A program made the position numbers and the translations under genes. Below the pieces are notes generated by a model. That model was not told the origin of the DNA. It ran no database searches and saw only the letters and a list, made by a program, of their open reading frames with translations. 64,000 bases of DNA from a bacterium (GTDB lineage Bacteria; Patescibacteriota; Minisyncoccia; UBA6257; 02-FULL-45-10c). Shown here piece by piece: positions 195-63,214 of this stretch. Each line of letters starts with the position of its first letter. Position 1 is the stretch's first letter. Location of the stretch: NCBI GenBank assembly GCA_030646915.1, contig JAUSKT010000012.1, forward strand, positions 4,663-68,662. The letters are read 5' to 3'.

Positions 195-1946
195 TTATTT
201 CAAAAATTTCAACATTTTTTCTAACGGCCAAGCATTTATAATATCCTCTTTTTCCGCCCAGCCCCGCCTTGCTTGCGCAATGCCATATTCTAGCCATTCA
301 AAATGAGATGTGTGATGCGCATCAGAATCAATAGCCATTTTTACTCCAGCTTCCGCGCATTTCCGGATATATTCATCTTTAAGATCAGAACGGTCTGAAG
401 CGTTTATTTCTAAAATCGTATTAGTCTTTTTAGCATGTTTTATTAATTCTTCAACATCCACATCATAAGGTTCACGCTTATTAAGAATCCTCCCAGTTGG
501 GTGGAAAATAATATCCACATGCGGATTAGACATAGCGCGCTTAATTCTTTCTGTCTGATCTTTTCTGGATAAATTAAAAAGTGAATGCACTGAGGCGCCA
601 ACCACTTCGCATTTTGCCAAAATTTCACCCGGCAAATCCATAGAACCATCTTTTAAAATATCACACTCAGTACCCTTAAGAACTTTAAACTTTAAACCTT
701 TAACTTTTAACTTATGATTTACTTCATCAATCTCTTTCCACTGCTTCTGAATTCTTATTTCATCTAGGCCGTGAGTCATTGCTAATCGCTTGGTATGGTC
801 TGTAATAGCAATATATTCTAATCCCATTTTCATCGCTACTTCTGCCATTTCTTGTATAGAATTTGCGCCATCAGTCCAATTAGTCTGAATCTGCAAATCA
901 CCCCTTAAATCTCCGTAACCGATAAGTTTTGGAAGTTTATTTTTTTGAGCAGCTTCAATTTCGCCCCGCATTTCTCTTAATTCCGGCTCAATATAATCCA
1001 TTCCTAAAGCTTTATATAATTCTTCTTCTGTTCTGCCGGCAATCTGTCTCCCTACGGGAGATCTCCCGTAGGGAGACTTTTTCATATCAAATAAACCGTA
1101 TTCGCTGAGTTTATAGCCCTTATTAAGGGCGATCCGCCTAAGTTCAATATTATGGTCTTTAGAACCGGTAAAATAATTAAGCGCCGCGCCATAAGATTCT
1201 GCCGAAACCACTCTTAAATCCACATCCAATCCATTTTTTAATTTAATTGCAGATTTAGTTTCACCATGAGCAAAAACTTGGGCTACTTCCGGCATAGAAA
1301 TAAAATAATCCATTATAGATTTTGGCTTTTTTGAAATAACTAAAATATCCGCATCGCCAATCGTATCTTTTCTTCGGCGGATTGATCCGGCAACCGCCAC
1401 CCGCTCCACTTCTTTTAATTTTTCCAGTCGAGATTCAATTTCCCTGACCTGCGGAATTGCTAATCCCAAAACAAACCGGCCGCCGATTTTTTTTAAAAAC
1501 TCTAAACCTTTTAAAATATTTTCTTCGCTCTTTATTCCAAATCCCTTCAAATTTCTTATTCTTCCACTTGCAAGTGCTTTTTCTAAATCTCTAAGGCCGA
1601 TAATTCCTAGTTCTTCATATAATTTTTTTAAAGTTTTAGACCCCAGCCCATTAATGCCTTCAAAATCTTTTAACCTAATGGGAATTTTCTTTTTAAAATC
1701 TTCATAATATTTTAAATGTCCAGTTTTAATCAGCTCCTCAATTTTTTCCGCAATAGAAATTCCAACTCCCGAAATCGCCCCTAAAGCTTTTAATCCGCCC
1801 TTTTTATAAATTTCTGAAGTTTTTTCTTCTAAATTTTCCAAAGCTTCCGCCACTTTTTCATAAGCCCGAGCTTTAAAAAACTCATTATCCATTTCAAGAT
1901 AAATCCCAATTTCTTTTAAAATTTTAACGATTTCCTGATTGTCCAT
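195..1946 (-). CDS. polX: Family X DNA polymerase with C-terminal PHP domain (PolX)
   Basis: 583-aa ORF with HhH motifs, a pol-beta-type nucleotidyltransferase core (GSIRRRKDTIGDADILV) and a C-terminal PHP domain (ITDHT..., DSDAHH). Contains a 32-nt palindrome at 1046-1077 and heptad repeats at 681-715. Confidence 0.9.
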   Translation of the reverse strand: MDNQEIVKILKEIGIYLEMDNEFFKARAYEKVAEALENLEEKTSEIYKKGGLKALGAISGVGISIAEKIEELIKTGHLKYYEDFKKKIPIRLKDFEGINGLGSKTLKKLYEELGIIGLRDLEKALASGRIRNLKGFGIKSEENILKGLEFLKKIGGRFVLGLAIPQVREIESRLEKLKEVERVAVAGSIRRRKDTIGDADILVISKKPKSIMDYFISMPEVAQVFAHGETKSAIKLKNGLDVDLRVVSAESYGAALNYFTGSKDHNIELRRIALNKGYKLSEYGLFDMKKSPYGRSPVGRQIAGRTEEELYKALGMDYIEPELREMRGEIEAAQKNKLPKLIGYGDLRGDLQIQTNWTDGANSIQEMAEVAMKMGLEYIAITDHTKRLAMTHGLDEIRIQKQWKEIDEVNHKLKVKGLKFKVLKGTECDILKDGSMDLPGEILAKCEVVGASVHSLFNLSRKDQTERIKRAMSNPHVDIIFHPTGRILNKREPYDVDVEELIKHAKKTNTILEINASDRSDLKDEYIRKCAEAGVKMAIDSDAHHTSHFEWLEYGIAQARRGWAEKEDIINAWPLEKMLKFLK

Positions 1947-2051
1947 CCCGTTTAGAAAATTAAAGCTAGCGTCTTTCGACTATAAAACTTCCGATAATAC
2001 TTGGGAGAATTTTTTCTATTAGTAAACATATTGGTTAATTTTCTAACGGGA
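1946..2051 (-). mobile_element. TIR element, long subfamily A (106 nt), on the polX start codon
   Basis: Ends are TCCCGTTAGA and TCTAACGGGA. A 4-bp direct repeat TGGA (gene sense) sits at 1942-1945 and 2052-2055. An internal 34-codon frame runs from ATG 2054-2056 to the TAA at 1952-1954. Confidence 0.85.
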
Positions 2052-2134
2052 TCCATTTTCATTATTTTACCTTAATTGACGAATAGAAAAAAATAAGCGA
2101 CAATAGATGCAGTTCACTTATAATTAAATAACAA

Positions 2135-2611
2135 ATGAAAGGGGTGTTTTCTTTATTTTTGGTGACAGCTTTATTTTTAAGCGGCTGCGGGATTAACAAG
2201 TCCATTCTCATTAAGGGAACTCCTTTTTATCAAAAAACTGATGACAGTCTTGATAGATTAGTTTTATATCTCAATAATGCCTGCAAAGAAAAATTTTCTA
2301 AAAAAGAGATTGCCAAGATTTTCCCAGAAAGACCGGAAAAGAAAATTGATGAAAAATCAGAAAGCTGGCACTATTCCCATTCTGAAACAAAAGGGAAATT
2401 AGTATTAAAACTTTCCCATCTCGAGAAAAAAGAAATAAAAGAGGCTGAAGAAATGGAATTAATTTTTAACCCGGAAGGCACTCTAGTGGCCTATAAAATT
2501 AAAATTAATCAACCTGAAGAATCCATTGAGCGAGTAGGTTATGCCTATGCAACGCTTCAAGGATTGATTATCGGCGGATCAGCTGGAGTAGCATTTAGCT
2601 TTATGAAATAA
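2135..2611 (+). CDS. Hypothetical lipoprotein
   Basis: 158-aa ORF with a signal peptide and lipobox (LFLSGCG). Confidence 0.6.
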   Translation: MKGVFSLFLVTALFLSGCGINKSILIKGTPFYQKTDDSLDRLVLYLNNACKEKFSKKEIAKIFPERPEKKIDEKSESWHYSHSETKGKLVLKLSHLEKKEIKEAEEMELIFNPEGTLVAYKIKINQPEESIERVGYAYATLQGLIIGGSAGVAFSFMK

Positions 2612-2633
2612 TTCCCATCTTTGATGGGAATTT

Positions 2634-5826: not shown

Positions 5827-5838
5827 AATCTTAATATT

Positions 5839-15333: not shown

Positions 15334-15362
15334 ATTTTACACTATAAATTGCTATTTGTCAA
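15334..15362 (-). promoter_or_regulatory. Sigma70-type promoter for 14750-15289
   Basis: On the minus strand: TTGACA (15357-15362), 17-nt spacer, TAAAAT (15334-15339). Confidence 0.55.
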
Positions 15363-15368
15363 TACTTG

Positions 15369-15418
15369 TCCCGTTAGAGGCAGAGGCGCGCTGCGTGTCC
15401 TCGTGGCCTCTAACGGGA
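15369..15418. mobile_element. TIR element, short GC-rich form (50 nt), intergenic between divergent promoters
   Basis: tcccgttagaggcagaggcgcgctgcgtgtcctcgtggcctctaacggga, flanked by TTG on both sides. The right-hand TTG is part of the rpsT -35 hexamer. Confidence 0.8.
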
Positions 15419-17343: not shown

Positions 17344-18327
17344 TTATAGCTTCTGGCACTTTGGGCAAAAATGCGCAGAACGCCCACCCAACTTTACCCG
17401 AACGATAGCCGTTTTGCATCTTCGGCAAGGCTCATCCTCGCGCTGATAAACTAGACGATAATCCGCATATCCCCCCTCTTTTCCCGAAGTATCCCGATAA
17501 TCGCTATAAGAAGTGCCGCGCAATTTCAAGGCCTTTTCCAAAACTTTTCGTATTGCCTTATACAAACTTCCTAATTCCTGATTCCCCAACTTATTCGCCG
17601 GCTTGAATGGATGGATTTTCGCAGCCCATAAAATATCGTCAGAATAAATATTTCCGATTCCCGCAATAACTTCCGGATCCATTAAAACTTGCTTGATTTT
17701 GCGACGCTCGGACTTTATTAATTTTACAAACTCCGCGAATTTGAAACTTGGGTCTAATGGTTCCGGCCCCAAATTTTTTATCTCCGGCAAATTTTCAATC
17801 TGTTCTTTGGTGCCTAAAAGGGCTTTGGCAAATTTACGAAGATCAGAAAGCGCCAACATTGCACCATCATCCACCCCGTTAGAAGCCGCCCTCGCTTTTA
17901 GCGAGTGGCTACGGCCACCTTGGGGCGACCTGCTTCTAACGGGGTCAAGATAAAAAATTAAATGAATATATTGATTATAAGGATCCTCAACTACTTCTTT
18001 CGGCTCAAGCGGAATAGTTTTTTTGCCCACGACTTTCCACTTGCCAATTAGCAGATGCCCGGTCATTTTCAAATGAATCAGCAATAAAAAATCACCGCTT
18101 AAATAAATTAAAATATTTTTTGCCCGGCGGACTACTTTTAAAATTTTCTTTCCTTTAATTACTTTTTCAAAAATCGCCACGTGCTTATGGGCTATTTTAT
18201 TTTTCTGCTGGTCAAGCGGGTCTTTGAGCATTTTCGGCCAATCAAACCAAACGCCGACTATTCGTCGGCCAACTACTTTCTTATTCAGATCATTAACTAT
18301 GGTTTGTACTTCTGGAAGCTCTGGCAT
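17344..18327 (-). CDS. mutM: Formamidopyrimidine-DNA glycosylase (Fpg/MutM) with an in-frame repeat insertion
   Basis: N-terminal MPELPEVQT, H2TH region and C-terminal Zn finger CRRCKTAI...CPKCQ. A 23-codon GC-rich insert lies at 17875-17943. Confidence 0.9.
   Translation of the reverse strand: MPELPEVQTIVNDLNKKVVGRRIVGVWFDWPKMLKDPLDQQKNKIAHKHVAIFEKVIKGKKILKVVRRAKNILIYLSGDFLLLIHLKMTGHLLIGKWKVVGKKTIPLEPKEVVEDPYNQYIHLIFYLDPVRSRSPQGGRSHSLKARAASNGVDDGAMLALSDLRKFAKALLGTKEQIENLPEIKNLGPEPLDPSFKFAEFVKLIKSERRKIKQVLMDPEVIAGIGNIYSDDILWAAKIHPFKPANKLGNQELGSLYKAIRKVLEKALKLRGTSYSDYRDTSGKEGGYADYRLVYQREDEPCRRCKTAIVRVKLGGRSAHFCPKCQKL
17874..17944 (-). mobile_element. TIR element, short GC-rich form (71 nt), in frame inside mutM
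   Basis: ccccgttagaagc...gcttctaacgggg, translated as PVRSRSPQGGRSHSLKARAASNG. Flanks are TTGA/TGGA (gene sense). Confidence 0.75.
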
Positions 18328-21047: not shown

Positions 21048-21938
21048 TTACAATCTTTCAACTAATGATTTAAAACCCAATTCTTCAAAATATTTTTTAA
21101 GTCCATCTTTGTCTGGCGTCTCTTGTTTTAAATCGGCCAAAGTTAATTCTAATGGCACGTCCCGTTTTATCATTGCCAGTTTTTTTGATAAAAAAGCGCT
21201 TTCGCGGTTTTTTTCCAGTTTTTCTTGCAAAACTTTTTTTGGAATCAGACCGACTTCTTCATAAATTTTTTCCACTGATCCGTATTCCTTGATTAAATCT
21301 GTCGCGCCTTTCGGGCCAATGCCATTAACGCCAGGAATATTATCCGATACATCGCCGACTAAAGCTTTATAATCCACTAATTGTTCCGGTGAAAATCCGT
21401 ATTCCTGCAAAAATAAAACTTTATCATAAGAAATGGTCTTACTGACGCCGGTTCTTAAAAGCTCGACAATAACTTTATTATCATCAACCAATTGCAAATT
21501 ATCTTTGTCGCCAGAGAAAATGATAACTTTGAGTTCAAAGTTATCACCCTGAGCCCGCCGAAGGGTTCCCGAATCTTTAAACATTTCGGCTAAAGTTCCT
21601 ACAATATCATCTGCTTCAAAACCGGCTTTTTCCACCACTTTAATTCCAAATTTCTCAAAAGTATTGTGCGCTTCATGAAGCTGAGAAATCAATTCATTAG
21701 CAGTCGGCGGACGATGGGCTTTATATTCTTTATACATTTCCTTGCGAAAAGTCGGTTCTGGCCGGTCAAAGGCAGCGGCCGTATAATCCGGCTGATGTTC
21801 GCGCAAAATCTTTAAAAGAATGCTGGAAAGCCCATAAACTGCATTAATCGGTTCGCCCCTGGGAGTCGTCAGCGGCGGAAGCGCATGAAAAGAGCGGTGA
21901 ATCAAGGAGTTTGCGTCAATTAAAAGAAGTTTTTTCAT
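21048..21938 (-). CDS. 5'-3' exonuclease (FEN-like N-terminal domain of Pol I) as a separate ORF
   Basis: 296 aa with LLLIDANSLIHRSFHA, GFEADDIVGT and GDKDNLQL motifs plus an HhH region. Confidence 0.9.
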   Translation of the reverse strand: MKKLLLIDANSLIHRSFHALPPLTTPRGEPINAVYGLSSILLKILREHQPDYTAAAFDRPEPTFRKEMYKEYKAHRPPTANELISQLHEAHNTFEKFGIKVVEKAGFEADDIVGTLAEMFKDSGTLRRAQGDNFELKVIIFSGDKDNLQLVDDNKVIVELLRTGVSKTISYDKVLFLQEYGFSPEQLVDYKALVGDVSDNIPGVNGIGPKGATDLIKEYGSVEKIYEEVGLIPKKVLQEKLEKNRESAFLSKKLAMIKRDVPLELTLADLKQETPDKDGLKKYFEELGFKSLVERL

Positions 21939-22043
21939 CCCGTTTAGAAAATTAAAATAAGTGTCTTGCCGACTAAATACTTCCGATAGTGCTCTATAAA
22001 ATTTTTATTGCGATTAAACATGGTTATTAATTTTCTAACGGGA
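21938..22043 (-). mobile_element. TIR element, long subfamily A (106 nt), on the 5'-3' exonuclease start codon
   Basis: TIRs are intact and the TGAA duplication is at 21934-21937 and 22044-22047 (gene sense). A 34-codon internal frame starts at ATG 22046-22048, which overlaps the tsaE stop TGA. Confidence 0.85.
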
Positions 22044-23173: not shown

Positions 23174-24189
23174 AAAAGTCCGCCTTCATCTTTTTGTTTA
23201 ATTCCCAGGTGCTTATAAGCCGCTGGCGTAACCAAGCGCCCGGCCGGCGTACGGTTTAAAAGACCGATACTCATTAAATACGGCTCATAGACATCCTCAA
23301 TAATTCCCCGGTCATCATTAAGTGCTGCGGCTAAAGTCTGGATGCCCACTGGTCCGCCGCGGAATTTTTCAATAATAATAGTCAAAAGCTGTCGGTCGGT
23401 CGGCTCCAAGCCAAGATGATCAATTTCAAGCATTGCCATAGTTTCTTGGGCGGCTTCTTCAGTAACCTCTTTTAAATTATTAACCTCTGCATAATCCCGA
23501 ACCCGGCGCAAAATGCGATTGGCAACTCTCGGAGTAAATCGGGAGGCTTTGGCAATTATATTAACAGCCGAATCTGCAACTTTCATTCCTAAAAGCCTGG
23601 CTGATCGCCGGACAATTGCTTCAATATCAGCTACTTCGTAATAATCTAGCTTAAAAGAGGCGCCAAAACGGGAACGAAGCGGGCCGGAAAGTAAATTCGC
23701 GCGGGTCGTAGCGGCAATTAAAGTAAATGGTGGGAGGTCTAAGGATAGAGTTCGCGCGCCCGGACCCTTGCCAACTATCAAATGCAACTTTCTCGATTCC
23801 AGCGCTGGATATAAAACTTCTTCAATTTGGCGATTCAACCGATGCGCCTCGTCAATAAATAAAATCTCTCCTTTGTCTAAATTGCTTAAAATAGCGGCGA
23901 GATCTCCCATCTTTTCCATTGTCGGTCCGGAAGTAATTTTAAAGCTTGCGCCCATTTCTTTTGCCACTAAATGCGCCAATGTAGTTTTTCCTAAGCCCGC
24001 CTGGCCATAAAATAAAAGATGATCGGCTGGCTCGCTCCGTTTTTTGGCAGCATCCAAAATTACACGCAAGTTTTTCTTTACTTTTTCCTGTCCGACGTAA
24101 TCACCCCACTGGGTCGGTCGAAGCGCCAAATCAATGTGCGTGTCGTCTTCAGTTTTATCAGTTTTAGCTGTAATTTTCTTTAATTCCAT
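23170..24189 (-). CDS. ruvB: Holliday junction helicase RuvB
   Basis: Walker A GQAGLGKTT, Walker B LFIDEAHRL and a winged-helix C-terminus. The start is set at MELKKITAK (24189). The track start at 24246 lies inside the repeat element. Confidence 0.93.
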   Translation of the reverse strand: MELKKITAKTDKTEDDTHIDLALRPTQWGDYVGQEKVKKNLRVILDAAKKRSEPADHLLFYGQAGLGKTTLAHLVAKEMGASFKITSGPTMEKMGDLAAILSNLDKGEILFIDEAHRLNRQIEEVLYPALESRKLHLIVGKGPGARTLSLDLPPFTLIAATTRANLLSGPLRSRFGASFKLDYYEVADIEAIVRRSARLLGMKVADSAVNIIAKASRFTPRVANRILRRVRDYAEVNNLKEVTEEAAQETMAMLEIDHLGLEPTDRQLLTIIIEKFRGGPVGIQTLAAALNDDRGIIEDVYEPYLMSIGLLNRTPAGRLVTPAAYKHLGIKQKDEGGLL

Positions 24190-24297
24190 CCCGTTTAGAA
24201 AAATAAATAATAATATCTTGTAACTAAAAAGCTTCCTATAATGCAATTATAATATTTTGACTTATTTATTGATACGGCTGTTATTTTTCTAACGGGA
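24189..24297 (-). mobile_element. TIR element, long subfamily B (109 nt), on the ruvB start codon
   Basis: Ends tcccgttagaaaaataa...ttatttttctaaacggga, with the TGGA duplication at 24185-24188 and 24298-24301 (gene sense). A 35-codon internal frame ends at a TAA 5 nt before the ruvB ATG. Confidence 0.85.
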
Positions 24298-35709: not shown

Positions 35710-36777
35710 TTATTCTAAACTAAGGCTATAAAGCTTATTATCGTATCTGTTTTTAAAGAGCAGTTTTCCGCCAGCGAATTCTAGATGTTCAGCGTCAATT
35801 ATGATATCGGAATTTTCTAATAATAATTTTGAAGCCGCAGTGGCTAGGTTTATTTCATACAAATTATCGTCAAAATATACAGATTTTTTAAAATAATCAT
35901 CTGGTAAAAGCACCCCCTCTTTTATAAGTTTTGGAATGGCGCAATAAATTTTTTCCTTTTCCACCAAGCATTTGCTTGGAAGGGTAATAAAAGAAAGGTT
36001 GGTCAGATCATCCCCGGCTTTATTGATAATGCCAGTAACCGGAGAACGATTTTCATTGTGGTTTTTAATGCCGAATTCTCCATTTGGATACCACTTTATC
36101 CACAAACCGGATTGATTCTTTGTAACCGGAACCAGGCTTTTGGTAGACAGATTTAATGACCAGAGCGAAGAAGGTGTATCTGCGCTGGGGGTTTCATATA
36201 GAAGCAAGGTGTCGCCGGAAACCCAATTTAAAACCAAGTCTTTTTGGGTTAATTTTAAAACATCTCTGGTTTTTTGAGTGTCCGGATTAAAAATTTTTAA
36301 TCCCTTATCATCAAGATAAATTATTTCTTGGTTAGTCGGAGACCAATCCGCCGCTGAAATATTAGGCGGCAAAGCCTGCCAATTGTTAGTGGCGGTATTG
36401 AAAATACTGAAGCTGATTGCATCCGGATAATTTAATTTTACCAAAGCTAAAACCCCGCTATTGGAAGCTTTTAAATTATTAAATTTATTAATAGTTTGAG
36501 AATTTACCAATTCTTCTCCGCCAGAGCCAATCTTAATTACTTGCCCTAAGGGATTGAGGTAATAAATAAAATTATTTACCCGATTTACCCAATAATCAGA
36601 GATTTCATTATTAGATAAAAGTTTTAATTTTTGCGGAAGCTCGGTTGGCTGGGTATTTTCGGTATCTGGAGAAATCAGTTTTTTAAATAAATTTTGCCAA
36701 AGAAAATATCCTCCAACGAGTATTCCAAGCGTTATTAAAATTCCTAAACCAGTTTTTAAATATTTTTTCCAGTTCAT
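35710..36777 (-). CDS. Membrane-anchored beta-propeller-like protein (TolB/PD40-like), last gene of the T4SS-like cluster
   Basis: 355 aa with an N-terminal TM helix and a repetitive beta-strand-rich body. Confidence 0.45.
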   Translation of the reverse strand: MNWKKYLKTGLGILITLGILVGGYFLWQNLFKKLISPDTENTQPTELPQKLKLLSNNEISDYWVNRVNNFIYYLNPLGQVIKIGSGGEELVNSQTINKFNNLKASNSGVLALVKLNYPDAISFSIFNTATNNWQALPPNISAADWSPTNQEIIYLDDKGLKIFNPDTQKTRDVLKLTQKDLVLNWVSGDTLLLYETPSADTPSSLWSLNLSTKSLVPVTKNQSGLWIKWYPNGEFGIKNHNENRSPVTGIINKAGDDLTNLSFITLPSKCLVEKEKIYCAIPKLIKEGVLLPDDYFKKSVYFDDNLYEINLATAASKLLLENSDIIIDAEHLEFAGGKLLFKNRYDNKLYSLSLE

Positions 36778-36882
36778 CCCGTTTAGAAAATTAAAATAAA
36801 CGTCTTGTCGACTGAAGACTTCCGATACTGCTCTATAAAATTATTGCTATGTATAAACATATTTATTAATTTTCTAACGGGA
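36777..36882 (-). mobile_element. TIR element, long subfamily A (106 nt), on the start codon of 35710-36777
   Basis: TIRs are intact. Flanks are TGCA/TGAA (3 of 4 match). The internal frame encodes MHPVRKLINMFIHSNNFIEQYRKSSVDKTFILIF. Confidence 0.85.
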
Positions 36883-39148: not shown

Positions 39149-40864
39149 TTATCCCCTTTGTTCCAATATTTGTTCGGGCTTGGTGGTGACAATTTTATCT
39201 TCAAGATAAGAGGCTATAACTTGGATTGCCACATGATTTAATCCGGCAAAAAACAGCCCCTCCCCAATTTTTGCTTCCAAGAGAAGGCTTTTTTCTCCCT
39301 CGGTTAAATTAAAAGTTTTAGCAACCATATCAATCATTGCCGGGGCCTGTTTTAAAAGAAGCTGTAAAGATGAGTTGGTAATAATCGGCCGGCCATATGG
39401 AGATTTTAAGAAATCTTCCACATCTTGAGTAATAGTAGTTACGCCCATAAAATATTTCCGGCATCGTTTTACCAATCCAAATAAGAAAGTGGCGCCATCT
39501 TCATGTTTCATAATTACCCAAGCTTCATCAATAACCAGCACTCGTTTTTTAAGATTGGCGCGGATTAAGTTCCAGATGAAATTCAAAACAATATACATTG
39601 CAATCGGCCGGAGTTCGTCTTCCAGGTCTCGGATAGAAAAAACAATCAAACGATTTTTAATATCCACATTAGTCGGTTGATTGGTAAATCCTCCATAGCT
39701 GCCTTGGGTATATTTATATAATCTTTCCGCAAGTCCCCGCCCGCCCTCCATATTTTCCATAACTTTTTGGAGGTCTTCTAAAAGCGGAGGCGCGGCATTA
39801 GAAAAATCTTTTCCGGGAATAATATCGTGGGAAGCGTAAGTTTCTGAAAGCGCCCTGTCTAAAATCGCATCTTCTTCGGGAGTAATTTTTCCAAGCATTA
39901 TTTTTAAAAGTCCGGCTAAGTTTACGATATGGGAACGAAGAACATCACTAGGATCTTCGTCTGTAGGAATTATCGGAATATCAAAAGGATTGACGTGGTG
40001 ATCAGATGCTAAAGAAATTTTAAAATAGCTTCCGCCGACGGCGGCAGTAAGATTTTCATATTCATTTTCCGGATCAATAACAATGACATCTATTCCAAGC
40101 ATCAAAAGCCTTAAAATTTCCAGTTTAGTGGCATAAGATTTTCCACTTCCAGATTTGGCGAAAATCACCATATTGGCATTTTCTAAAGAAAATCGGTCGA
40201 AAATTACAAGCGTATTATTAAGCCGGTTAATGCCATACATAAGGCCGTCATTTGAAGTAAGTTCAGAGGAGGTAAAGGGAAAGACAGAAGAAAGCGGGCC
40301 GGAATTCAATGGTGAATGGATTAATAATTTATCTTGGCCGATAGGCAGAGTTGATCCAAAGCCTTCTAATTGTTGAAAAAGCGCCGGTTTGACATAGATC
40401 AGGCGGCTTTCGAGTAAAGAGGTTATTTTATTTTCTAATTTATGGAGAGCTTCTATAGTATCGGCATAAACAGTGATATAGACGCCGACATTAAATAAAT
40501 GTTCTCTTGATTGCTGTAAAGAATCCCGCAAAGATTCAATGTCTTGAAAGGCGGTTTCTAGCATAGGATCGCGCACCATTCCCTTCTCCTGCCTTTCAAT
40601 TACTTGAGATTCTACTTGAGCAGCCTTTTTACGGAGTCTTTTAAGGGCCATTGGCGTTTCTACTGGATGAATAAAGATGGAAATATCCAGAAGTTCCGGC
40701 ATATCAATAATTCCGGAAAACCAGCCAGTGGCCAAATATCTGGGATAAGTAAAAATGAAAATAGTTTTTACAAACTTATCTCCAAGTTTTAAATAATTGG
40801 AATTCACTTCCAGCGCCGGTGGCGCAATTGCATTGATTAAATTTTTATTTTGTTCTTCAGCCAT
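39149..40864 (-). CDS. virB4: VirB4/TrbE/PrgJ-type conjugation/T4SS ATPase
   Basis: 571 aa with Walker A AKSGSGKSY, Walker B VLVIDEAW and a C-terminal TTITQDVEDF region. Confidence 0.8.
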   Translation of the reverse strand: MAEEQNKNLINAIAPPALEVNSNYLKLGDKFVKTIFIFTYPRYLATGWFSGIIDMPELLDISIFIHPVETPMALKRLRKKAAQVESQVIERQEKGMVRDPMLETAFQDIESLRDSLQQSREHLFNVGVYITVYADTIEALHKLENKITSLLESRLIYVKPALFQQLEGFGSTLPIGQDKLLIHSPLNSGPLSSVFPFTSSELTSNDGLMYGINRLNNTLVIFDRFSLENANMVIFAKSGSGKSYATKLEILRLLMLGIDVIVIDPENEYENLTAAVGGSYFKISLASDHHVNPFDIPIIPTDEDPSDVLRSHIVNLAGLLKIMLGKITPEEDAILDRALSETYASHDIIPGKDFSNAAPPLLEDLQKVMENMEGGRGLAERLYKYTQGSYGGFTNQPTNVDIKNRLIVFSIRDLEDELRPIAMYIVLNFIWNLIRANLKKRVLVIDEAWVIMKHEDGATFLFGLVKRCRKYFMGVTTITQDVEDFLKSPYGRPIITNSSLQLLLKQAPAMIDMVAKTFNLTEGEKSLLLEAKIGEGLFFAGLNHVAIQVIASYLEDKIVTTKPEQILEQRG

Positions 40865-40968
40865 CCCGTTAGAAAATTAAATTAAACATCTTGCCGACTA
40901 AAGACTTCCGATATTGCTCTATAAAATTTTGGTTTAGTTTAAACATATTTATTAATTTTCTAACGGGA
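40864..40968 (-). mobile_element. TIR element, long subfamily A (105 nt), on the virB4 start codon; supplies the stop codon of the upstream gene
   Basis: TIRs are intact and no flanking duplication is seen. The TAG of ORF 40960-41631 (40960-40962) lies inside the element terminus cccgTTAGaaaa. Confidence 0.85.
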
Positions 40969-41631: not shown

Positions 41632-41645
41632 AAGCTTATTATATA

Positions 41646-42161
41646 TTATCTATAGTCTACTCTTTTAGCTATTTCCCTTTCTCCGGTGATTTTCCGCATC
41701 ATTTCAAAGCGTTCCTTGCTGCTTTTTTCTCGGTCAGTGATTGCTGGGGCGAAAGCTTTTTCTCTTTTTGGAACCGGCTGTTTGCTGGTTTTTAATTGAT
41801 CCCAAAGATTATCAAGCAGCGATTTCGCCTGAGTTATTTTAAATCCGCCGGTTTTTAATTTCGGTTCAGCTATTTTGGGAGCAGCCTCCCTTCTCCAGAG
41901 ATAAAATCTTGGCTTCCAATAAAAATTAAAAGCCGCAAACACGATTATTGATAATGGCCGCCCATTTACTTTTATAAAGGCAAAAGATAAAGAAATAACA
42001 GCCAATACGAAAGTTATTAATATCCAAAGCCAGAGCTGTAAAAAGAAGAAAAGAAAAAAACTTATTCCGCCCGCAGTTGCAACGTATAAAAACTGCTTCA
42101 GGGTAAGCGGTCCAATAATCCTGTCTTCGGTTTCTATAAATTGCGGGACTTGAAAGTTCAT
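41646..42161 (-). CDS. PrgI/VirB3-like membrane protein
   Basis: 171 aa with an N-terminal VPQFIETEDRIIGPLTLKQF followed by two TM helices, the PrgI family pattern. Confidence 0.6.
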   Translation of the reverse strand: MNFQVPQFIETEDRIIGPLTLKQFLYVATAGGISFFLFFFLQLWLWILITFVLAVISLSFAFIKVNGRPLSIIVFAAFNFYWKPRFYLWRREAAPKIAEPKLKTGGFKITQAKSLLDNLWDQLKTSKQPVPKREKAFAPAITDREKSSKERFEMMRKITGEREIAKRVDYR

Positions 42162-42268
42162 CCCGTTAGAAAAATAAATTATAACGCCTTACGACTAACA
42201 GGTTTTCTATAATGCAATTATAAAATTTTGAATTATCTTTACACATGATTGTTATTTTTCTAACGGGA
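42161..42268 (-). mobile_element. TIR element, long subfamily B (108 nt), on the start codon of 41646-42161
   Basis: TGAA duplication on both sides. The internal frame encodes MNPVRKITIMCKDNSKFYNCIIENLLVVRRYNLFF and ends at a TAA 4 nt before the ATG. Confidence 0.85.
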
Positions 42269-42272
42269 TTCA

Positions 42273-42301
42273 TCCCTTCGTTAGTATTGTCTCTAACGGG
42301 A
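42273..42301 (-). mobile_element. 29-nt stub of a TIR element in tandem with the previous copy
   Basis: Gene sense reads tcccgttagagacaatactaacgaaggga between two further ATGAAT repeats. It is 9 codons long and in frame with the downstream element frame. Confidence 0.6.
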
Positions 42302-42305
42302 TTCA

Positions 42306-43220
42306 TTATTTATTTTTTAAATCAATAATGTTATCGCCTGATTTTTCGAATTTCCGCAAATCAATCCTGTTTTGATCCGCGGGATTTTTTGGCGTTCCAA
42401 TATTAGTAATTGGGGTTCTTGGGCCGCTGTAGTGAACTACTCTAGCAGCCGGATTATTTTCGGGTGTTTCCAGTCTTACTGATACTGCCTTAGAAGCAGA
42501 TTTTTTTTCTTCAGAAGCCGGCCGCGAATAGTTTTGAATTTTAATAGAAAGATCCGGCCTAGCATTAAAAGTTGGCTTAGGGGAAGAAACTTCTGTTTCT
42601 TGATGTAAGATAAATGGAGAAGATGGCGCTTCCAAAGATTGGAGATCAATTTTAGCTTCCTCTTTTTTAGGAGCAAGAGATGGCTCTAAAAAATCTTTAA
42701 ATGATTTTTGTACGCTAGCTTGTCCTAGTGATGAGGCTGGTCCCGTTAGAGACTCCGCCCGCGCTTGCGCGCCCGAAGGGCCTATGGGGCGGGCTGTCTC
42801 TAACGGGATGGCTGCTGATTGTGTCGCTGGTTCAGTTGCAGGTTTTTGCGCGGCAGAAGCTGATCCTGGCTTGCCAAAATAAATTAATTTTACATCCACG
42901 CCAACATCCCGCCTTAATTCATTTTCAATTGGTTTTAAAATTTTATTTTCAATATCTTCGGCGATGGATTTTGCGGTTGTAAAACTAACCATAAGTTCGT
43001 GACTTAGGGCATTTATAAACTCCGTAGGTTCAATATCTTGGGTTACAAGCCTAAATATTAGCTTCGGTATAATTATTCCCCGTTCATTCTTTATTCCCAG
43101 TCTTTGGTTTATTTCAGTAACTAGATAAGTAGTTTGTAGGGAAGAAAGCCGCTCTTTAACGTTTGGGGGCAATGACTCAAATGCAGCCCCCAAATTTTTA
43201 AATTCTTTAGTGTCGTCCAT
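42306..43220 (-). CDS. Hypothetical protein with Ala/Ser/Pro-rich linker (T4SS-like cluster), carrying an in-frame repeat insertion
   Basis: 304-aa ORF. A 22-codon GC-rich insert lies at 42742-42807. Confidence 0.5.
   Translation of the reverse strand: MDDTKEFKNLGAAFESLPPNVKERLSSLQTTYLVTEINQRLGIKNERGIIIPKLIFRLVTQDIEPTEFINALSHELMVSFTTAKSIAEDIENKILKPIENELRRDVGVDVKLIYFGKPGSASAAQKPATEPATQSAAIPLETARPIGPSGAQARAESLTGPASSLGQASVQKSFKDFLEPSLAPKKEEAKIDLQSLEAPSSPFILHQETEVSSPKPTFNARPDLSIKIQNYSRPASEEKKSASKAVSVRLETPENNPAARVVHYSGPRTPITNIGTPKNPADQNRIDLRKFEKSGDNIIDLKNK
42741..42808 (-). mobile_element. TIR element, short GC-rich form (68 nt), in frame inside 42306-43220
   Basis: tcccgttagagac...gtctctaacggga with a TGG duplication. 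It is read in a different frame from the other intragenic copies (IPLETARPIGPSGAQARAESLTG). Confidence 0.75.
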
Positions 43221-43223
43221 GGT

Positions 43224-47700: not shown

Positions 47701-48543
47701 TTATCGGAAAATATTAGCCAGAGACTTTATTTGTTCCAGTGATAAATTTTGCGGACGATCTAGGGGGTTGATATTCAGAAATTGCAGGCTTTTTTTAATA
47801 TCTTCTTCTTTGGTTTTAAGACCAGTCCTAAGGTTATTAAAGATTGTTTTTCTCGGTTGTTTAAAAAGAATGTGGATTAATTTGTAGTAATTTTGCTGTA
47901 GTTGTCTGTGGTTATTTGTAGTTGTTTGTGGTTTTGTCGTTAGTTTAATTACTGCAGAATCTACTTCCGGCGGCGGATTAAAATCCGCCGGTTTTAAGCT
48001 AAAAAGTATTTTAGGTTCTGCCCAGAATTGGACAGCAGCTGCCAGCAGATTCATCCCGTTAGAGGCAGAGGCGCGCTGCGGGCCCTCGCGGCCTCTAACG
48101 GGATTCATTCTCCGGGGTTGGGAAACAATTCTTTCCGCAACTTCTTTTTGAATCATTAAAACAGAAATATTAGGCTTATTATTTAATTCACTTAAAACCC
48201 TTAGCAGTTTACCGGTAATATAGTAGGGAATGTTTCCTACAAGTTTAAAACTTGAAGAATCAAGTTTAAAGCAAATTTTTGACAATTCTTTTAGGGCATC
48301 TCCGTGGATAACTTCTATTTTTTCTTCATGTTTAATAAGTTTTACCGCAAGATCTCGGTCTTTTTCAATTGCAATTAATTTGCAGCCAACCTTTTTACAT
48401 TCTTCTAAAAGCGGAAAAGTCAGCGCTCCATCGCCTGGACCAATTTCAATAATTGTTTCTCCGGATTTTAAATCTAAATCAGCAATTATTTTTTTAATTG
48501 CAGATTTATTTGTAAGAAAATGCTGGCCTAATTGTTTATTCAT
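47701..48543 (-). CDS. rsmA: 16S rRNA (adenine1518/1519-N6)-dimethyltransferase RsmA/KsgA with an in-frame repeat insertion
   Basis: 280 aa with LGQHFL, the SAM motif EIGPGDGALT and NIPYYIT. An 18-codon insertion lies at 48049-48102. Confidence 0.9.
   Translation of the reverse strand: MNKQLGQHFLTNKSAIKKIIADLDLKSGETIIEIGPGDGALTFPLLEECKKVGCKLIAIEKDRDLAVKLIKHEEKIEVIHGDALKELSKICFKLDSSSFKLVGNIPYYITGKLLRVLSELNNKPNISVLMIQKEVAERIVSQPRRMNPVRGREGPQRASASNGMNLLAAAVQFWAEPKILFSLKPADFNPPPEVDSAVIKLTTKPQTTTNNHRQLQQNYYKLIHILFKQPRKTIFNNLRTGLKTKEEDIKKSLQFLNINPLDRPQNLSLEQIKSLANIFR
48054..48103 (-). mobile_element. TIR element, short GC-rich form (50 nt), in frame inside rsmA
   Basis: Flanked by the direct repeat ATGAAT (gene sense; 48049-48054 and 48103-48108). 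Translated as PVRGREGPQRASASNG. Confidence 0.85.
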
Positions 48544-48665
48544 CCCGTTAGAGACAGGTCATCTTTAGATGACCGTAACTCGGCCGCCTAAACGACTCCT
48601 GACGATTAATTATTGATTCTGATTTTATATATATATTAAACATAGTTTAGTTGTCTCTAACGGGA
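48543..48665 (-). mobile_element. TIR element, long subfamily C (123 nt), on the rsmA start codon
   Basis: Ends tcccgttagagac...gtctctaacggga with TGAA duplications. The internal frame has an early TAA at codon 8, then an in-frame ATG leading to the terminal TAA. Confidence 0.85.
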
Positions 48666-55758: not shown

Positions 55759-55881
55759 TCCCGTTAGAGACAACCAAACTATGTTTTATATATATCCAAA
55801 ATTTGAATCAATAATTAATAATCAGAAGTCAGTTAGGTGGCCGAGTTACGGTCATCTAAAGATGACCTGTCTCTAACGGGA
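55759..55881 (+). mobile_element. TIR element, long subfamily C (123 nt), on the comM start codon
   Basis: TGAA duplications at 55755-55758 and 55882-55885. The upstream ATG (55754-55756) overlaps the dksA-like stop TAA. The internal frame is 40 codons (MNPVRDNQTMFYIYPKFESIINNQKSVRWPSYGHLKMTCL). Confidence 0.88.
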
Positions 55882-57467: not shown

Positions 57468-58544
57468 TTATGGGACGAGGCTGCTGAGAACTTTTTTAAG
57501 TCCGTTATAGGAAGTGCTTAGTACTAATTTGTCTCCAGACCAAACTATATTGAGTCCGGCGCCTTTTTTGGAATAGGTTAAATAACGAGTTGAAAGCCCG
57601 TTTAATTGTCCAGTTTTAAATCCGCTTGCACTTGGCGTTCCGGGAGAAGTTAGAAAAAGATTCTGGAGATTTGTAGAGGTTTCTAAAATAGTTGAGAAAG
57701 TCTGGCCGTCTGCAAGATTTGCATTAGGAGCAAGTTTTAAAATATAGGCCGGCCAAACACCATCTTGGTCGTAAAAAAGTCCAGTAGTAAAGTCTTCGCC
57801 AAAAAGGCTTTTTATATTATCCATGGATAATTCTGGAAAAACAGCCGATAAAAATTTGGAAGCATCTAGCGGGCCGTTGGCATCGCTTAAAGAAACCTCT
57901 ATCAAATTTCCAGAAGGATTGGATTTTTGGGCTTCTTGATTTAAAGCGTTAGTTAAAGATGTTAAGTCGGAACTCGCTAAATTTACTTCAACTGCGCTAT
58001 CTGAAGATTGCAAAAGAGATTGGTGAATGCGCCCCTCATTTTCCGTTGTTGCGACTGGAACCTCTGGGGTTTCTGTAGTTGTTGGCGGAGTTACGGCTGG
58101 GGGTGGGGGCGGAGTTTGTGTTGGAAAAAGCATTGGAAAGAGTACAAAGTAGCTTAGCAGTCCAACTCCAACCGCAACAACAACTACCCCTCCCCAAAGT
58201 AAAAGCTTTTTTCCTCTTCCACTGGCAGCCGGCTCTTCTTCAATAACTGGCGCCATTTCTTTTTCCATTTCTGCCTTTAGATTTTCTCTTGGAGAGCCAA
58301 AATCAGCAGGAGTAATTTTAGGCGGCGGCGGAGGCGGGGTTGTTGGCGCGGACCATTCTTTTTTTAGTTCCGGAGGAGTAAATGGTTTTGGCGCCGGGCC
58401 AGATCCGCCGGTTTCTTTTAGGGATTCCAAATCAGACTTCATAGTTCGAAGCGTAATTTCTGGAGGAGGTGGAGGCAGAGGCATAGTCGGCCGTCCGCCA
58501 GGTGGCGGAGGAAAACTAGATGGCTGCGGATTTAAATCATCCAT
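57468..58544 (-). CDS. Hypothetical proline-rich single-pass membrane protein
   Basis: 358 aa with PPPPP tracts, one TM helix and an extracytoplasmic C-terminal domain. Confidence 0.55.
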   Translation of the reverse strand: MDDLNPQPSSFPPPPGGRPTMPLPPPPPEITLRTMKSDLESLKETGGSGPAPKPFTPPELKKEWSAPTTPPPPPPKITPADFGSPRENLKAEMEKEMAPVIEEEPAASGRGKKLLLWGGVVVVAVGVGLLSYFVLFPMLFPTQTPPPPPAVTPPTTTETPEVPVATTENEGRIHQSLLQSSDSAVEVNLASSDLTSLTNALNQEAQKSNPSGNLIEVSLSDANGPLDASKFLSAVFPELSMDNIKSLFGEDFTTGLFYDQDGVWPAYILKLAPNANLADGQTFSTILETSTNLQNLFLTSPGTPSASGFKTGQLNGLSTRYLTYSKKGAGLNIVWSGDKLVLSTSYNGLKKVLSSLVP

Positions 58545-58649
58545 CCCGTTTAGAAAATTAAATTAAACGTCTTGCCGACTGAAGACTTCCGATAATGCTC
58601 TTTAAGACAATTTAGTACTATAATCATATTTGTTAATTTTCTAACGGGA
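58544..58649 (-). mobile_element. TIR element, long subfamily A (106 nt), on the start codon of 57468-58544
   Basis: TGGA duplications on both sides (ATGGAT/ATGGAT). The internal frame encodes MDPVRKLTNMIIVLNCLKEHYRKSSVGKTFNLIF. Confidence 0.88.
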
Positions 58650-58721
58650 TCCATATTTTTTATTGTAACATAAACAAAATCCCCGGCTTTTTAGGCTGGG
58701 GATAAAAGAACCTATTTGATT

Positions 58722-60830: not shown

Positions 60831-60832
60831 AA

Positions 60833-61437: not shown

Positions 61438-61560
61438 TACTGATTGCGCTTCGCAAAGCCAAGATACAAATGCACACAAATGATACCAATTTTATCCCAG
61501 TATCATTTGTATGAATTCGTACTTTAGATGGGGAAGCGCTTAATTAATTTAGTTTATAAT

Positions 61561-61827
61561 TTATTTTTTCAATCCCAATTTTTTAATAGTTGAGCTGTAA
61601 GATTTAGGATTTTTCTTTGAAAGATAATCCAATAATCTTTTTCTTTTGCCGACCATTTTTAATAACCCTCTTCGGGAATGGTTGTCTTTCCGGTGTTTTT
61701 TAAGGTGGCCGGTTAATTCCTCGATTTGCCTGGTTAAAAGCGCAACTTGAACAGCCGGAGATCCGGTATCTTTATCATGTTCCTGATGTTCTTTTAAAAC
61801 GTTAATTTTTTGCCTGACACTTAACAT
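61561..61827 (-). CDS. rpsO: 30S ribosomal protein S15
   Basis: 88 aa with [37 protein letters not shown]. Confidence 0.93.
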
Positions 61828-61895
61828 TGTTGTCTATTATAGACTATTTGTTTAAAAAAATCAACCCCCCCATTTTATTAATTAAAAAACCGGCA

Positions 61896-62162
61896 TTATT
61901 CTGCCGGTTTGAATTTATCTGCAAGCCATTCAAGATCAGATCCGTCTGCTCCTAAAACTTCTTCAAGATATACCAAGCCGCATTTCCATTCTTCTAGAAC
62001 TTTTCCTTTCAGCCACCAATCGGATTTGAGATGCCGTTTTTGATATTCTTCTAAAGAAACATGTTCTTTTATGGTATAGATTTTATTAGTGCTGAACATT
62101 GCCTTATCCATAAAATCTAGTTTGCCTTCAATGCAAACTACTCGATCGCCTGGTTTGAACAT
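61896..62162 (-). CDS. Hypothetical small protein
   Basis: 88-aa ORF. A terminator hairpin aaaccggc/gccggttt overlaps its stop. Confidence 0.45.
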   Translation of the reverse strand: MFKPGDRVVCIEGKLDFMDKAMFSTNKIYTIKEHVSLEEYQKRHLKSDWWLKGKVLEEWKCGLVYLEEVLGADGSDLEWLADKFKPAE

Positions 62163-62263
62163 TTTAGCTTTTTAATTGAATAAGTTCTAAAAAGATATTA
62201 GCAGAAGCTTCCAGAAAAAACAACACTTACCTGTCGCAAAATGTTAAATGGTATAATTAGTTT

Positions 62264-63214
62264 ATGGCAGCCATTGAAAAATCCTTAAAAGACTACTTAG
62301 ATTATCTGGAAATTGAAAAAAACCGTTCGCCGAAGACGCGAGAAAATTATGAACGATATTTAAAAGCCTTTATTGATTTTTCTAGAATTAAAAAACCGGA
62401 AGATATTACAATGGAGACGGTGAAAGAATTCCGGATATGGTTAGCGCGCAGTCCCGTTAGAGGCCGCGAGGGCTCGAAGCGCGCCTCTGCCTCTAACGGG
62501 ATAAAAAAAGTTACCCAGACTTATTACGCCATTGCCATCCGGAATTTTTTAAAATACTTGATTAAAAACGATTTTGAAGTTTTGTCTCCGGATAAAATTG
62601 AATTGCCGAAAATTCCCCGCCGGCAGATAGATATTATTGAATACGCGGATTTGGAAAGGTTTTTAAGCGCGCCGGCGCAAAATACTTTGCGCGGACTTAG
62701 AGACAGAGCTATCCTGGAAATGTTTTTTTCCACCGGACTCCGGATTTCCGAACTTTGCAATTTAGATAGGTATATTAATTTGGATAGAGGAGAAATCACG
62801 GTAAGAGGCAAGGGCGAAAAATTGCGGGTGGTTTTTCTTTCAGATCGGGCAAGAGCGGCTATAAAAAATTATCTGGATAAAAGAAGTGATACCACAGAAC
62901 ATTTATTTATCAGCCTTTCCAAGCAAACTTCTCCATTGAAAGAGCCGAAAGTTATTGGAAAAATCACTTCGCGAGCAGTCCAGCGGTTGGTAGAATTTTA
63001 CCGGCGGAAAGCTGGCATCGCCAAAAAAATAACTCCGCATCAGATCCGCCATCAGTTCGCGACTGATTTATTAATAAATGGCGCAGACCTCCGCTCGGTG
63101 CAGGAGCTTCTTGGCCATAGCAATATTTCCACCACTCAAATTTATACCCACATTACTAATAAAGAACTTCGGGAAATTCATAAATCTTTCCACGCAGCCA
63201 GGCGGAGAAAATAA
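62264..63214 (+). CDS. XerC/XerD-type tyrosine recombinase with an in-frame repeat insertion
   Basis: 316 aa with an N-terminal SAM-like domain (LEIEKNRSPKTRENYERYL) and catalytic R...HQIRH...LLGH...Y residues. A 16-codon insert lies at 62453-62500. Confidence 0.88.
   Translation: MAAIEKSLKDYLDYLEIEKNRSPKTRENYERYLKAFIDFSRIKKPEDITMETVKEFRIWLARSPVRGREGSKRASASNGIKKVTQTYYAIAIRNFLKYLIKNDFEVLSPDKIELPKIPRRQIDIIEYADLERFLSAPAQNTLRGLRDRAILEMFFSTGLRISELCNLDRYINLDRGEITVRGKGEKLRVVFLSDRARAAIKNYLDKRSDTTEHLFISLSKQTSPLKEPKVIGKITSRAVQRLVEFYRRKAGIAKKITPHQIRHQFATDLLINGADLRSVQELLGHSNISTTQIYTHITNKELREIHKSFHAARRRK
62452..62501 (+). mobile_element. TIR element, short GC-rich form (50 nt), in frame inside the Xer recombinase gene
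   Basis: 46 of 48 core positions are identical to the rsmA copy, in the same orientation and frame (PVRGREGSKRASASNG). No flanking duplication is recognisable. Confidence 0.8.

Follow-up and report, generated by a model that had tools for sequence, protein, structure and literature searches.

Short repeats on start codons of a Patescibacteria genome as probable deletion derivatives of a 274-280-bp GIY-YIG nuclease cassette

We analysed a 64-kb stretch of DNA (hereafter the window; positions 4,663 to 68,662 of contig JAUSKT010000012.1, assembly GCA_030646915.1) from a bacterium of the Patescibacteriota, and in it a family of short dispersed repeats, many of which sit on the start codons of host genes. 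The window carries genes for PolX, a Clp ATPase, PNPase, PBP1A, PilB, a VirB4-like ATPase and a split DNA polymerase I, and a crude gene call gives 62 genes at a coding density of 90%. Apart from one protein identical to it, relatives of its PNPase are 78-79% identical and below, and those that are named include Patescibacteria of the Harrison-/Wolfebacteria neighbourhood. The family comprises 16 copies of 29-123 nt each, whose coding capacity is limited to remnants of open reading frames (ORFs). Printing the intervals with their flanks reproduced all the coordinates and lengths of a preliminary description, which had been made from the sequence without database searches (Table 1).

The copies are bounded by a terminal inverted repeat, exact over 10 nt and reaching 13-24 nt in many copies when extended. 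The terminal sequence TCCCGTTAGA has 23 exact matches on the two strands of the window, while shuffled sequences gave an expectation of 0.10 and a maximum of 2. Seven ends contain a 1-nt bulge (TCCCGTTTAGA / TCTAAACGGGA), and copy 17874 (copies are named by their first position) has C/G at its tips, as had been stated. A relaxed search for terminus pairs yielded no further convincing copies in the window. A lone TCCCGTTAGT with one mismatch (61073-61082, minus strand), located inside an NYN-domain gene and with no partner terminus nearby, is probably due to chance or an old remnant.

The longer copies fall into three subfamilies, A, B and C, which had been thought to share essentially only their ends. 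This was slightly overstated, since they also align internally over a common ATGTTTAA block and other stretches (mean column identity 69%); these stretches are remnants of one ancestral ORF. The A copies, at six loci, are 77-94% identical and share one deletion structure, so that the deleted form itself must have spread, and in-situ decay is ruled out as the sole source of short copies. Two of them, 21938 and 35025, are 94% identical and are flanked by TGAA and TGGA, respectively. The flanking repeat is therefore derived from the target and not carried by the element, which excludes a flanking tetranucleotide that belongs to the element, as in IS608. The tally of flanks (ten perfect 4-bp repeats, four partial, two without a repeat) came out as first described.

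Table 1. Copies of the repeat family in the window, with their host genes and flanks, and the regions of the extended -10 box
Feature	Position	Strand	Length (nt)	Location	Flanks	Flanking repeat
Subfamily A	1946..2051	-	106	start of PolX gene (195-1946)	ATGGA…TGGA	perfect
Subfamily A	21938..22043	-	106	start of 5'-3' exonuclease gene (21048-21938)	ATGAA…TGAA	perfect
Subfamily A	35025..35130	+	106	start of R3H-domain gene (35130-35555)	ATGGA…TGGA	perfect
Subfamily A	36777..36882	-	106	start of 355-aa gene (35710-36777)	ATGCA…TGAA	partial (TGCA/TGAA)
Subfamily A	40864..40968	-	105	start of VirB4-like ATPase gene (39149-40864)		none
Subfamily A	58544..58649	-	106	start of 358-aa gene downstream of PNPase gene	ATGGA…TGGA	perfect
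Subfamily B	24189..24297	-	109	start of ruvB (23170-24189)	ATGGA…TGGA	perfect
Subfamily B	42161..42268	-	108	start of PrgI-family gene (41646-42161); tandem with 29-nt stub	ATGAA…TGAA	perfect
Stub, termini only	42273..42301	-	29	directly upstream of copy 42161; in frame MNPVRDNTNEG-M		perfect
Subfamily C	48543..48665	-	123	start of ksgA/rsmA (47701-48543)	ATGAA…TGAA	perfect
Subfamily C	55759..55881	+	123	start of Mg-chelatase/ComM-like gene (55881-57416)	ATGAA…TGAA	perfect
GC-rich hairpin	15369..15418	+	50	TTG start of rpsT (ribosomal protein S20)	CTTG…TTGA	partial (TTG)
GC-rich hairpin	48054..48103	-	50	inside ksgA at internal ATGAA	TGAA repeat	perfect
GC-rich hairpin	62452..62501	+	50	inside XerC/D-like recombinase gene; in frame (SPVRGREGSKRASASNGI)		none
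GC-rich hairpin	42741..42808	-	68	inside 304-aa ORF (42306-43220); in-frame read-through		partial (TGG)
GC-rich hairpin, C/G tips	17874..17944	-	71	inside fpg (17344-18327); 71+4 nt = 25 codons in frame		partial (3/4)
Extended -10 box region, window	58650..58721	-				
Extended -10 box region, L001	5907..5973					
Extended -10 box region, L005	9822..9888					

Read in the sense of the following gene, 10 of the 16 copies have the structure ATGRA-TCCCGTTAGA … TCTAA(A)CGGGA-TGRA, and copy 36777 makes an eleventh, its ATGCA and TGAA flanks pointing to a mutation at one position of the repeat. TGRA, the 4-bp repeat, forms the end of a longer motif, ATGRA, and the target is in practice the start codon. 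The preliminary description had recognised the TGRA duplication and missed this larger target. The terminal A of the element and the duplicated TG together rebuild the ATG of the host gene. Ten copies lie exactly at a gene start (PolX, the 5'-3' exonuclease, the R3H protein, RuvB, the VirB4-like ATPase, the PrgI-family protein, KsgA, the ComM/Mg-chelatase-like protein and two unnamed genes), and all ten long copies are in gene-sense orientation. The window holds 325 ATGRA sites in all; 9 of its 26 genes that start with ATGRA are occupied, plus one occupied gene with another start.

At copy 21938 the TGA of the upstream gene overlaps the old ATG (TGATGAA), so the insertion there separated a stop and a start that had been coupled. 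Upstream of copy 40864, the gene now stops at the TAG in the left terminus (TCC CGT TAG; 40960-40968), so that the element supplies a stop as well as a start. The 29-nt stub at 42273 inserted at the ATGAA rebuilt by copy 42161, or vice versa. Another type of left junction, AYACTTG-TCCCGTTAGA, occurs at four unrelated loci (window 15361-15368, L025 at about 6892, L069 at about 4804 and L048 at about 3300; loci of other genomes are designated by L and a number); in the window it lies at the TTG start of rpsT, and it does not fit a TGRA duplication.

The repeats are insertions, as relatives whose PNPases are 78-79% identical to that of the window have empty sites at three orthologous places. The motif is entirely absent from five syntenic loci of relatives. 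In L001 and L005 the PNPase gene and its downstream neighbour are 67 nt apart; in the window the distance is 177 nt (67+106+4), and the flanks of this site align base for base with L001 and L005 up to ATGGA. The start of the ComM-like gene is uninterrupted, ATGAAT(T/C)TATC, in L001, L002 and L005, where the protein has the same MNLSKV N-terminus. In KsgA, exactly 18 extra codons (NPVRGREGPQRASASNGM) are found at the internal ATGAA, producing a clean 18-residue gap in a BLASTP alignment with the ortholog of L003. At all three places (copies 58544, 55759 and 48054, respectively) the empty site carries a single TGRA, the arrangement that the preliminary description had suggested looking for. In its main points, the first interpretation, that of copies resembling miniature inverted-repeat transposable elements (MITEs), thus holds: inverted termini, a target-derived duplication, empty orthologous sites and one deletion form at six loci.

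Neither Rfam nor the literature yielded a match to the termini, which the preliminary description had not recognised either. A literature search found no relevant paper with the terminus sequence, and Rfam 15 at its gathering score gave two tRNAs only in the whole window, with no structured-RNA, ribozyme or intron match, which rules out a structured RNA family. The earlier statement that the window contains no transposase stands for a full-length nuclease or transposase related to the family (tblastn); the remaining ORFs were not all screened for unrelated transposases.

The family extends far beyond this genome. When one genome per species was scanned for the left junction ATGRATCCCGTTAGA, at least 119 stretches matched, and their hosts, judging from the titles of 80 printed loci and the full locus list, are nearly all Patescibacteria of many classes. 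By our own estimate, which supposes equal base frequencies, about 2,000 chance matches to such a 15-mer are expected in the collection, so lone matches mean little. Most of the loci, though, have the opposite terminus within 25-200 nt, giving at least 111 bounded elements, most often 116-123 nt long. The query did not include the right flank; this flank pairs with the left one as TGAA/TGAA in 68 cases and TGGA/TGGA in 20, and about 9 of 97 pairs are unmatched. The flanking duplications that had been described in the window are thus found outside it as well, at a ratio of about 88 matched to 9 unmatched.

A second scan, of metagenomes, used an 18-mer of the right end without flank. It gave 124 copies, 118 of which have the unqueried left terminus; their right flanks are TGAA in 65, TGGA in 24 and TG followed by anything in 111. 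Lengths cluster at about 116-132, about 186-199 and 274-280 nt, the middle class holding roughly 20 of the 124 copies (loci L129-L248), for instance L129 (196 nt). Viral contigs contained 0 matches to the right-end 18-mer, by which carriage on phages is ruled out. Nothing larger than about 280 bp lies between paired termini at the approximately 240 loci (more than 230 copies); a pair 1,500 bp apart in L087, considered as a larger transposase-bearing copy, proved to be two separate copies around a host ATPase gene. Bounded ATGAA/TGAA copies also occur on contigs binned as Omnitrophota, Planctomycetota, Pirellulales and Sedimentisphaerales (L055, L058, L074, L076, L077, L083 and L105), representing either real spread or mis-binning. 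Three of these loci (L058, L077 and L105) share the terminus extension TCCCGTTAGACCT with a Saccharimonadales locus, L091.

The preference for start codons is maintained in both samples, and one orientation prevails. At 76 of 97 sites of the genome sample (78%), an ORF of at least 60 codons follows the rebuilt ATG and at most 20 open codons precede the old one, while random ATGRA sites of the same loci pass this two-part test in 8.5% of cases. An ORF of at least 60 codons follows the rebuilt ATG in 97 of the 124 metagenome copies. The hairpin end adjoins the gene in 36 cases versus 4, and orientation judged by the flanks is 111 to about 5 in the right-end metagenome sample.

The longer copy with the same ends, which the preliminary description had envisaged as encoding a transposase, was found in other genomes as an element of 274-280 bp; what it encodes is a 95-aa GIY-YIG nuclease and no classical transposase. 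These copies contain a single ORF, in the sense of the host gene, which the termini TCCCGTTAGA…TCTAACGGGA surround and in part encode. In one example, ATG AAT CCC GTT AGA … CTA TCT CTA ACG GGA TGA A is translated as MNPVRD…KRFLSLTG*, PVR coming from the left terminus and SLTG from the right, with the TGA overlapping the rebuilt host ATG (ATGA). Among the full-length metagenome copies, 25 of 31 (81%) have an intact ORF that ends at the overlapping TGA; the host ATG is the start in 10 of these 25, and the remaining 15 use an ATG that lies 20-27 nt deeper inside. The host genes behind the full-length copies are all different, approximately 30 in number.

GIY-YIG is the sole Pfam domain of the protein above the gathering score (E=1e-17), with an overlapping match to the related T5orf172 domain. 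A homolog search retrieved 3,320 protein clusters, and 1,124 representatives of a library clustered at 50% identity match at E≤1e-10. Most homologs have 95 aa; some have 86 aa, where annotators chose an internal ATG, and their source names do not go beyond 'GIY-YIG nuclease family protein' and 'excinuclease ABC subunit C'. When 28 sequences are aligned, the terminus-encoded MNPVRD and KRFLSLTG hardly vary, and the catalytic residues Y14, Y25-T-G27, R35, H39 and E59 are invariant or nearly so. The AlphaFold2 model (pLDDT 87) is one compact fold with the β-β-α-β-α-α order typical of GIY-YIG domains, and its confidence is lower in the first and last ten-residue blocks, which include the residues encoded by the termini. 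Among solved structures, the UPF0213 protein BH0048 and Slx1 come nearest. Other near annotated relatives include EF2693 and Bacillus subtilis yazA, the latter being the nearest annotated gene on plasmids, and NCBIfam models show weak similarity to intron endonucleases. Three full-length copies at different loci (L131, L182 and L199; 278 nt, TGGA flanks) carry an identical frameshift between the two halves of the nuclease ORF, which points to a pseudogene lineage in the course of spreading or else to programmed frameshifting.

The shorter forms in the window keep pieces of this ORF. The subfamily C remnant MNPVRDNQTMFYIY… (copy 55759) matches the N-terminus of the nuclease consensus in tblastn (E=7e-5), and copy 48543 keeps an N-terminal remnant, MNPVRDN*TMFNIYI. 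Subfamilies A and B retain the MNPVRK… start, most of their copies and both C copies retain the ATG-TTT of the first β-strand, and subfamily A has an additional, weaker C-terminal echo of the nuclease. No full-length nuclease copy is found in the window by tblastn.

Taken as a whole, these observations are best explained if the 16 sequences are non-autonomous deletion derivatives of a 274-280-bp selfish GIY-YIG cassette, of the UPF0213/SLX1/Ssn type, that is widespread in Patescibacteria, and we consider this explanation probable. Alternatively, the repeats could be conventional MITEs that owe their movement to a so far unseen transposase of the DDE type with affinity for these termini, the GIY-YIG gene being a passenger or accessory of one size class. 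A 4-bp target-derived duplication next to perfect inverted termini is indeed the classical signature of a DDE transposase, and hydrolytic GIY-YIG enzymes have, to our knowledge, no strand-transfer activity. Among the approximately 240 loci, however, no pair of termini encloses anything above about 280 bp. Moreover, every full-length copy has a nuclease ORF whose first and last codons overlap with the termini, this ORF is intact in most of the copies, and the deleted forms keep pieces of it. We therefore regard a DDE origin as quite unlikely.

The closest described system, compared by its description, is that of the Ssn nucleases with their NTS/SRM hairpin repeats (SsnA of Neisseria meningitidis; Chenal et al., Nat Commun 2025, PMC11893778). 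Ssn is a 94-aa single-domain GIY-YIG enzyme that cuts single-stranded DNA beside its own hairpin repeat; this repeat flanks the ssn gene and fills the genome, a layout that the authors remark is like that of an insertion sequence (IS) (PMC11893778). The two systems are alike in having a single-domain GIY-YIG protein of about 94-95 aa, whose gene is bracketed by an inverted-repeat sequence present in very many copies in a compact or symbiont genome. The repeats also have a similar core, …TCCCG–stem–CGGGA…, NTS being CGTCATTCCCGCG…GCGGGAATC and the family of the candidate phyla radiation (CPR), in antisense, TTCATCCCGTTAGA…. They differ in that the CPR gene occupies the interior of a single split inverted repeat, both halves of which are translated, whereas the Ssn gene lies between two complete hairpins, and in that the 4-bp duplication, empty sites, start-codon insertion and stop-start overlap of the CPR family are unreported for Ssn (PMC11893778). 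The hosts differ as well, CPR being unmentioned in the main text of that paper, and the nearest sequence relatives of the CPR nuclease are of the UPF0213/YazA type. The published SRM pattern, HGTCWYN(0-2)YYVSBRHN(0-5)WNVSBRGN(0-2)RNCYNB (PMC11893778), has 0 matches in the window, against 0.25 in shuffled sequences.

The family could also be, like NTS/SsnA of Neisseria or REP/RAYT, a repeat system domesticated by the host after an ancient spread, with roles, for example, in the control of incoming single-stranded DNA, in recombination, or in mRNA stability or translation. SsnA and NTS modulate natural transformation, and a domesticated IS-like NTS-ssnA-NTS unit has been proposed (PMC11893778). 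Patescibacteria have type IV pilus and competence genes, with a PilB gene in the window itself, and the divergence of the window copies within a subfamily (77-94% identity) indicates that none is very recent. A domesticated system fits poorly, however, with presence that varies among relatives at three loci and with copies that sit on start codons and inside conserved enzymes, next to unrelated host genes and in no regulatory pattern; the thousands of diverged nuclease copies, and copies sharing one frameshift, look selfish. As the prime explanation, domestication seems to us unlikely; the selfish and the domesticated views are compatible with each other.

How a selfish cassette could persist on start codons may be understood if ribosomes pass through it. 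They would start at the original AUG, without a Shine-Dalgarno (SD) sequence and often leaderless, or at an internal one, translate through the element and melt the stem formed by the two termini, whose foot holds the new AUG; there they would terminate and restart on the host gene. Such a translational hand-over, proposed from the sequence, would leave an insertion nearly silent in a genome of 90% coding density. The nuclease, for its part, would act on the hairpin or cruciform of the termini and thereby move full-length and deleted copies. This mobilising role is suggested by analogy with the Ssn enzymes, whose cuts in single-stranded DNA fall beside their own hairpin, and with Slx1, which cuts branched DNA.

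Several features of the termini are in keeping with the hand-over. At the right end, TCTAACGGGATGAA, the reading frames either stop at a TAA 4 nt before the ATG, stop at the TGA of ATGA, or continue in frame, and in the left terminus both remaining frames meet an immediate stop (TGA, TAG). An ATG-started ORF reaches the rebuilt ATG in 116 of 165 derivatives, compared with 64 of 165 in the antisense control (p=1e-8), which is consistent with ribosomes being handed over. The frame closed by the terminal TAA has a median open length of 24 codons versus 10; in copy 1946 the frame from the upstream ATG stays open for 34 codons, until the TAA in the right terminus. The extra A of TCTAAACGGGA, considered for a role in keeping the frame, lies downstream of this TAA and alters spacing only.

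As to initiation, an SD core is present at 4.6% of element sites versus 10% of control gene starts (approximately 1,360 starts in CPR loci), and 27% of sites versus 20% of controls have a -10-like TANNNT box that precedes the ATG by 6-7 nt, an arrangement typical of leaderless mRNAs. The gene after PNPase has an extended -10 box (TGTTACAAT / TGCTATAAT) 6-7 nt before its ATG, in the window and in relatives (Table 1), implying a leaderless mRNA for this gene. A promoter borne by the element itself was rejected, as there is no excess in the sense orientation (TGNTANNNT 12 versus 16, TAYAWT 28 versus 32, sense versus antisense, among 83).

The short GC-rich forms would persist in another way. They are strong DNA hairpins (z -4.3 to -7.3; -19.1 kcal/mol and z -6.2 for copy 15369, z -5.0 for 48054 and z -7.3 for 17874). 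They contain no stops and their lengths are n ≡ 2 (mod 3), so that with the 4-nt repeat whole codons are added. As stop-free inserts whose length plus 4 is a multiple of 3, they would survive inside genes by being translated. The hairpin copies within KsgA and the Xer-like recombinase are predicted to be translated in frame: the recombinase has, relative to three orthologs, a 13-14-residue insertion at the point of copy 62452 only. The Fpg copy is probably translated likewise, the N-terminal domain being stretched in the Pfam match (copy 17874). The 50-nt form is near-identical in unrelated metagenome-assembled genomes and is also found nested in longer copies. Short GC-rich copies in general can be nested in this way (L048 3211-3358, L059 4633-4804, L097 1659-1805 and L040 4620-4774) and occur even inside the 3' end of the nuclease ORF, where proteins P0148 and P0185 end in …KRFLSRLE…SNGTCL.

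Elements acting at the RNA level, in which the insert is spliced out or skipped by ribosomal bypass of the kind seen in T4 gene 60 or Magnusiomyces byp, would also show identical codons flanking a structured insert, and the strong hairpins and a size of exactly 50 nt recall T4 gene 60. We find this very improbable. All intragenic copies are stop-free and in frame, leaving no untranslatable gap that would need skipping; the long copies precede the rebuilt ATG and lie outside the protein. In addition, the Rfam search revealed no ribozyme or intron, and the full-length copies carry a conserved ORF under selection.

In their in-frame, translated inserts, the GC-rich forms (and only these) resemble the Rickettsia palindromic elements, reportedly described by Ogata and colleagues in 2000 as short palindromic repeats inserted in frame in conserved genes and translated; the likeness holds for KsgA and the Xer-like recombinase, and probably for Fpg. 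Sequence and host clade are different, and the Rickettsia elements have no described start-codon preference, rebuilt ATG or coding parent.

Several points weigh against the derivation from a mobile nuclease cassette and against the ribosomal hand-over. About 60% of the derivatives have a stop soon after the old ATG, so coupling from the old ATG is not general and internal ATGs must be invoked, and part of the open sense frames may be inherited from the ancestral ORF instead of selected. The enrichment of leaderless-type sites is modest (odds ratio 1.5, p=0.018). The start-codon bias may be due wholly to selection and needs no special targeting, because almost all other ATGRA insertions would be lethal in a genome with 90% coding density, although direct targeting may contribute. 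The part of the nuclease in movement is argued from sequence and analogy; GIY-YIG enzymes hydrolyse DNA, and we know of none that joins strands or gives a 4-bp duplication. Finally, the window is without a full-length copy, and we assume that the helper nuclease is encoded in this genome.

Other mobile systems offer further comparisons. MITEs and their parent insertion sequences (Correia elements, IS630- or IS5-derived MITEs) share with the CPR family the inverted termini, a short target duplication, deletion size classes, large copy numbers and a longer coding element bounded by matching ends, which for the CPR family lies in other genomes. The CPR partner, in contrast, has only 274-280 bp, its termini are translated, it encodes a GIY-YIG nuclease and no DDE, HUH, serine or tyrosine enzyme, and the family lies in gene sense at ratios of about 9:1 to 20:1. 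The smallest autonomous IS elements that we know of have approximately 0.6-0.7 kb. The REP/BIME-RAYT and IS200/IS605 systems likewise link hairpin repeats to a small flanked nuclease gene, are orientation-specific and lie next to a short specific sequence. They use a Y1 HUH enzyme, have subterminal hairpins and make no target duplication, whereas the CPR family has a GIY-YIG enzyme and a target-derived duplication. Free-standing GIY-YIG homing genes (T4 seg, relatives of I-TevI) are also selfish genes lodged between genes of the host, in many cases with a stop codon that overlaps the next start. Homing enzymes, however, have a separate DNA-binding domain, home to the same locus of a naive genome and leave no duplication, while the CPR protein has 95 aa with no second domain, dozens of unrelated targets, inverted termini and a 4-bp duplication. 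Our literature search for the terminus string, for MITEs in CPR, and for GIY-YIG transposons or a GIY-YIG gene with inverted repeats and target duplication found none of these, the Ssn paper being the only close item.

Two other parts of the window may be mentioned. DNA polymerase I is split (19569-21938) into two genes, one for the 5'-3' exonuclease (21048-21938), which has an element at its start, and one for the polymerase domain (19569-21047); the stop codon of the former is followed at once by the ATG of the latter. A cluster resembling conjugation or type IV secretion genes (39149-45107) comprises the VirB4-like ATPase (CD1110 family), the PrgI-family protein and a protein of 627 aa that matched no NCBIfam model, and it holds 4 of the 16 copies.

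The repeats thus make up a new MITE-like family, whose probable parent is unorthodox. That the cassette is moreover a new class of autonomous DNA transposon, with a 95-aa GIY-YIG nuclease as its sole protein and start codons as its hiding place, we regard as a tentative proposal with slightly less than an even chance of being right. If it is true, this would be by far the smallest self-mobilising element known, placing the lower size limit at about 280 bp, and if the nuclease mobilises the element it would represent a new enzyme class for DNA transposition. Next to introns and inteins, it would be a third route of hiding in essential genes, one in which the host promoter and AUG are borrowed and the ribosome is returned via ATGA. 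The same mechanism could explain the origin of the Ssn/NTS repeats, giving the Ssn single-strand nucleases a likely evolutionary origin, and possibly that of the in-gene palindromic elements of other reduced genomes.

For annotation, the family affects gene starts in thousands of CPR genomes: 10 of the 62 window genes have an element at their ATG, gene callers start the host gene inside the element (as in ORF 23170-24246) or trim the nuclease to 86 aa, and some conserved proteins contain translated inserts of 14-25 residues. The thousands of diverged nuclease/hairpin pairs are also a possible source of sequence-specific cutters of single-stranded DNA. For the organism itself, a roughly 1-Mb genome that is 90% coding tolerates one insertion per 4 kb, with the start codon restored and, probably, the flow of ribosomes too, a form of tolerance unlike splicing.

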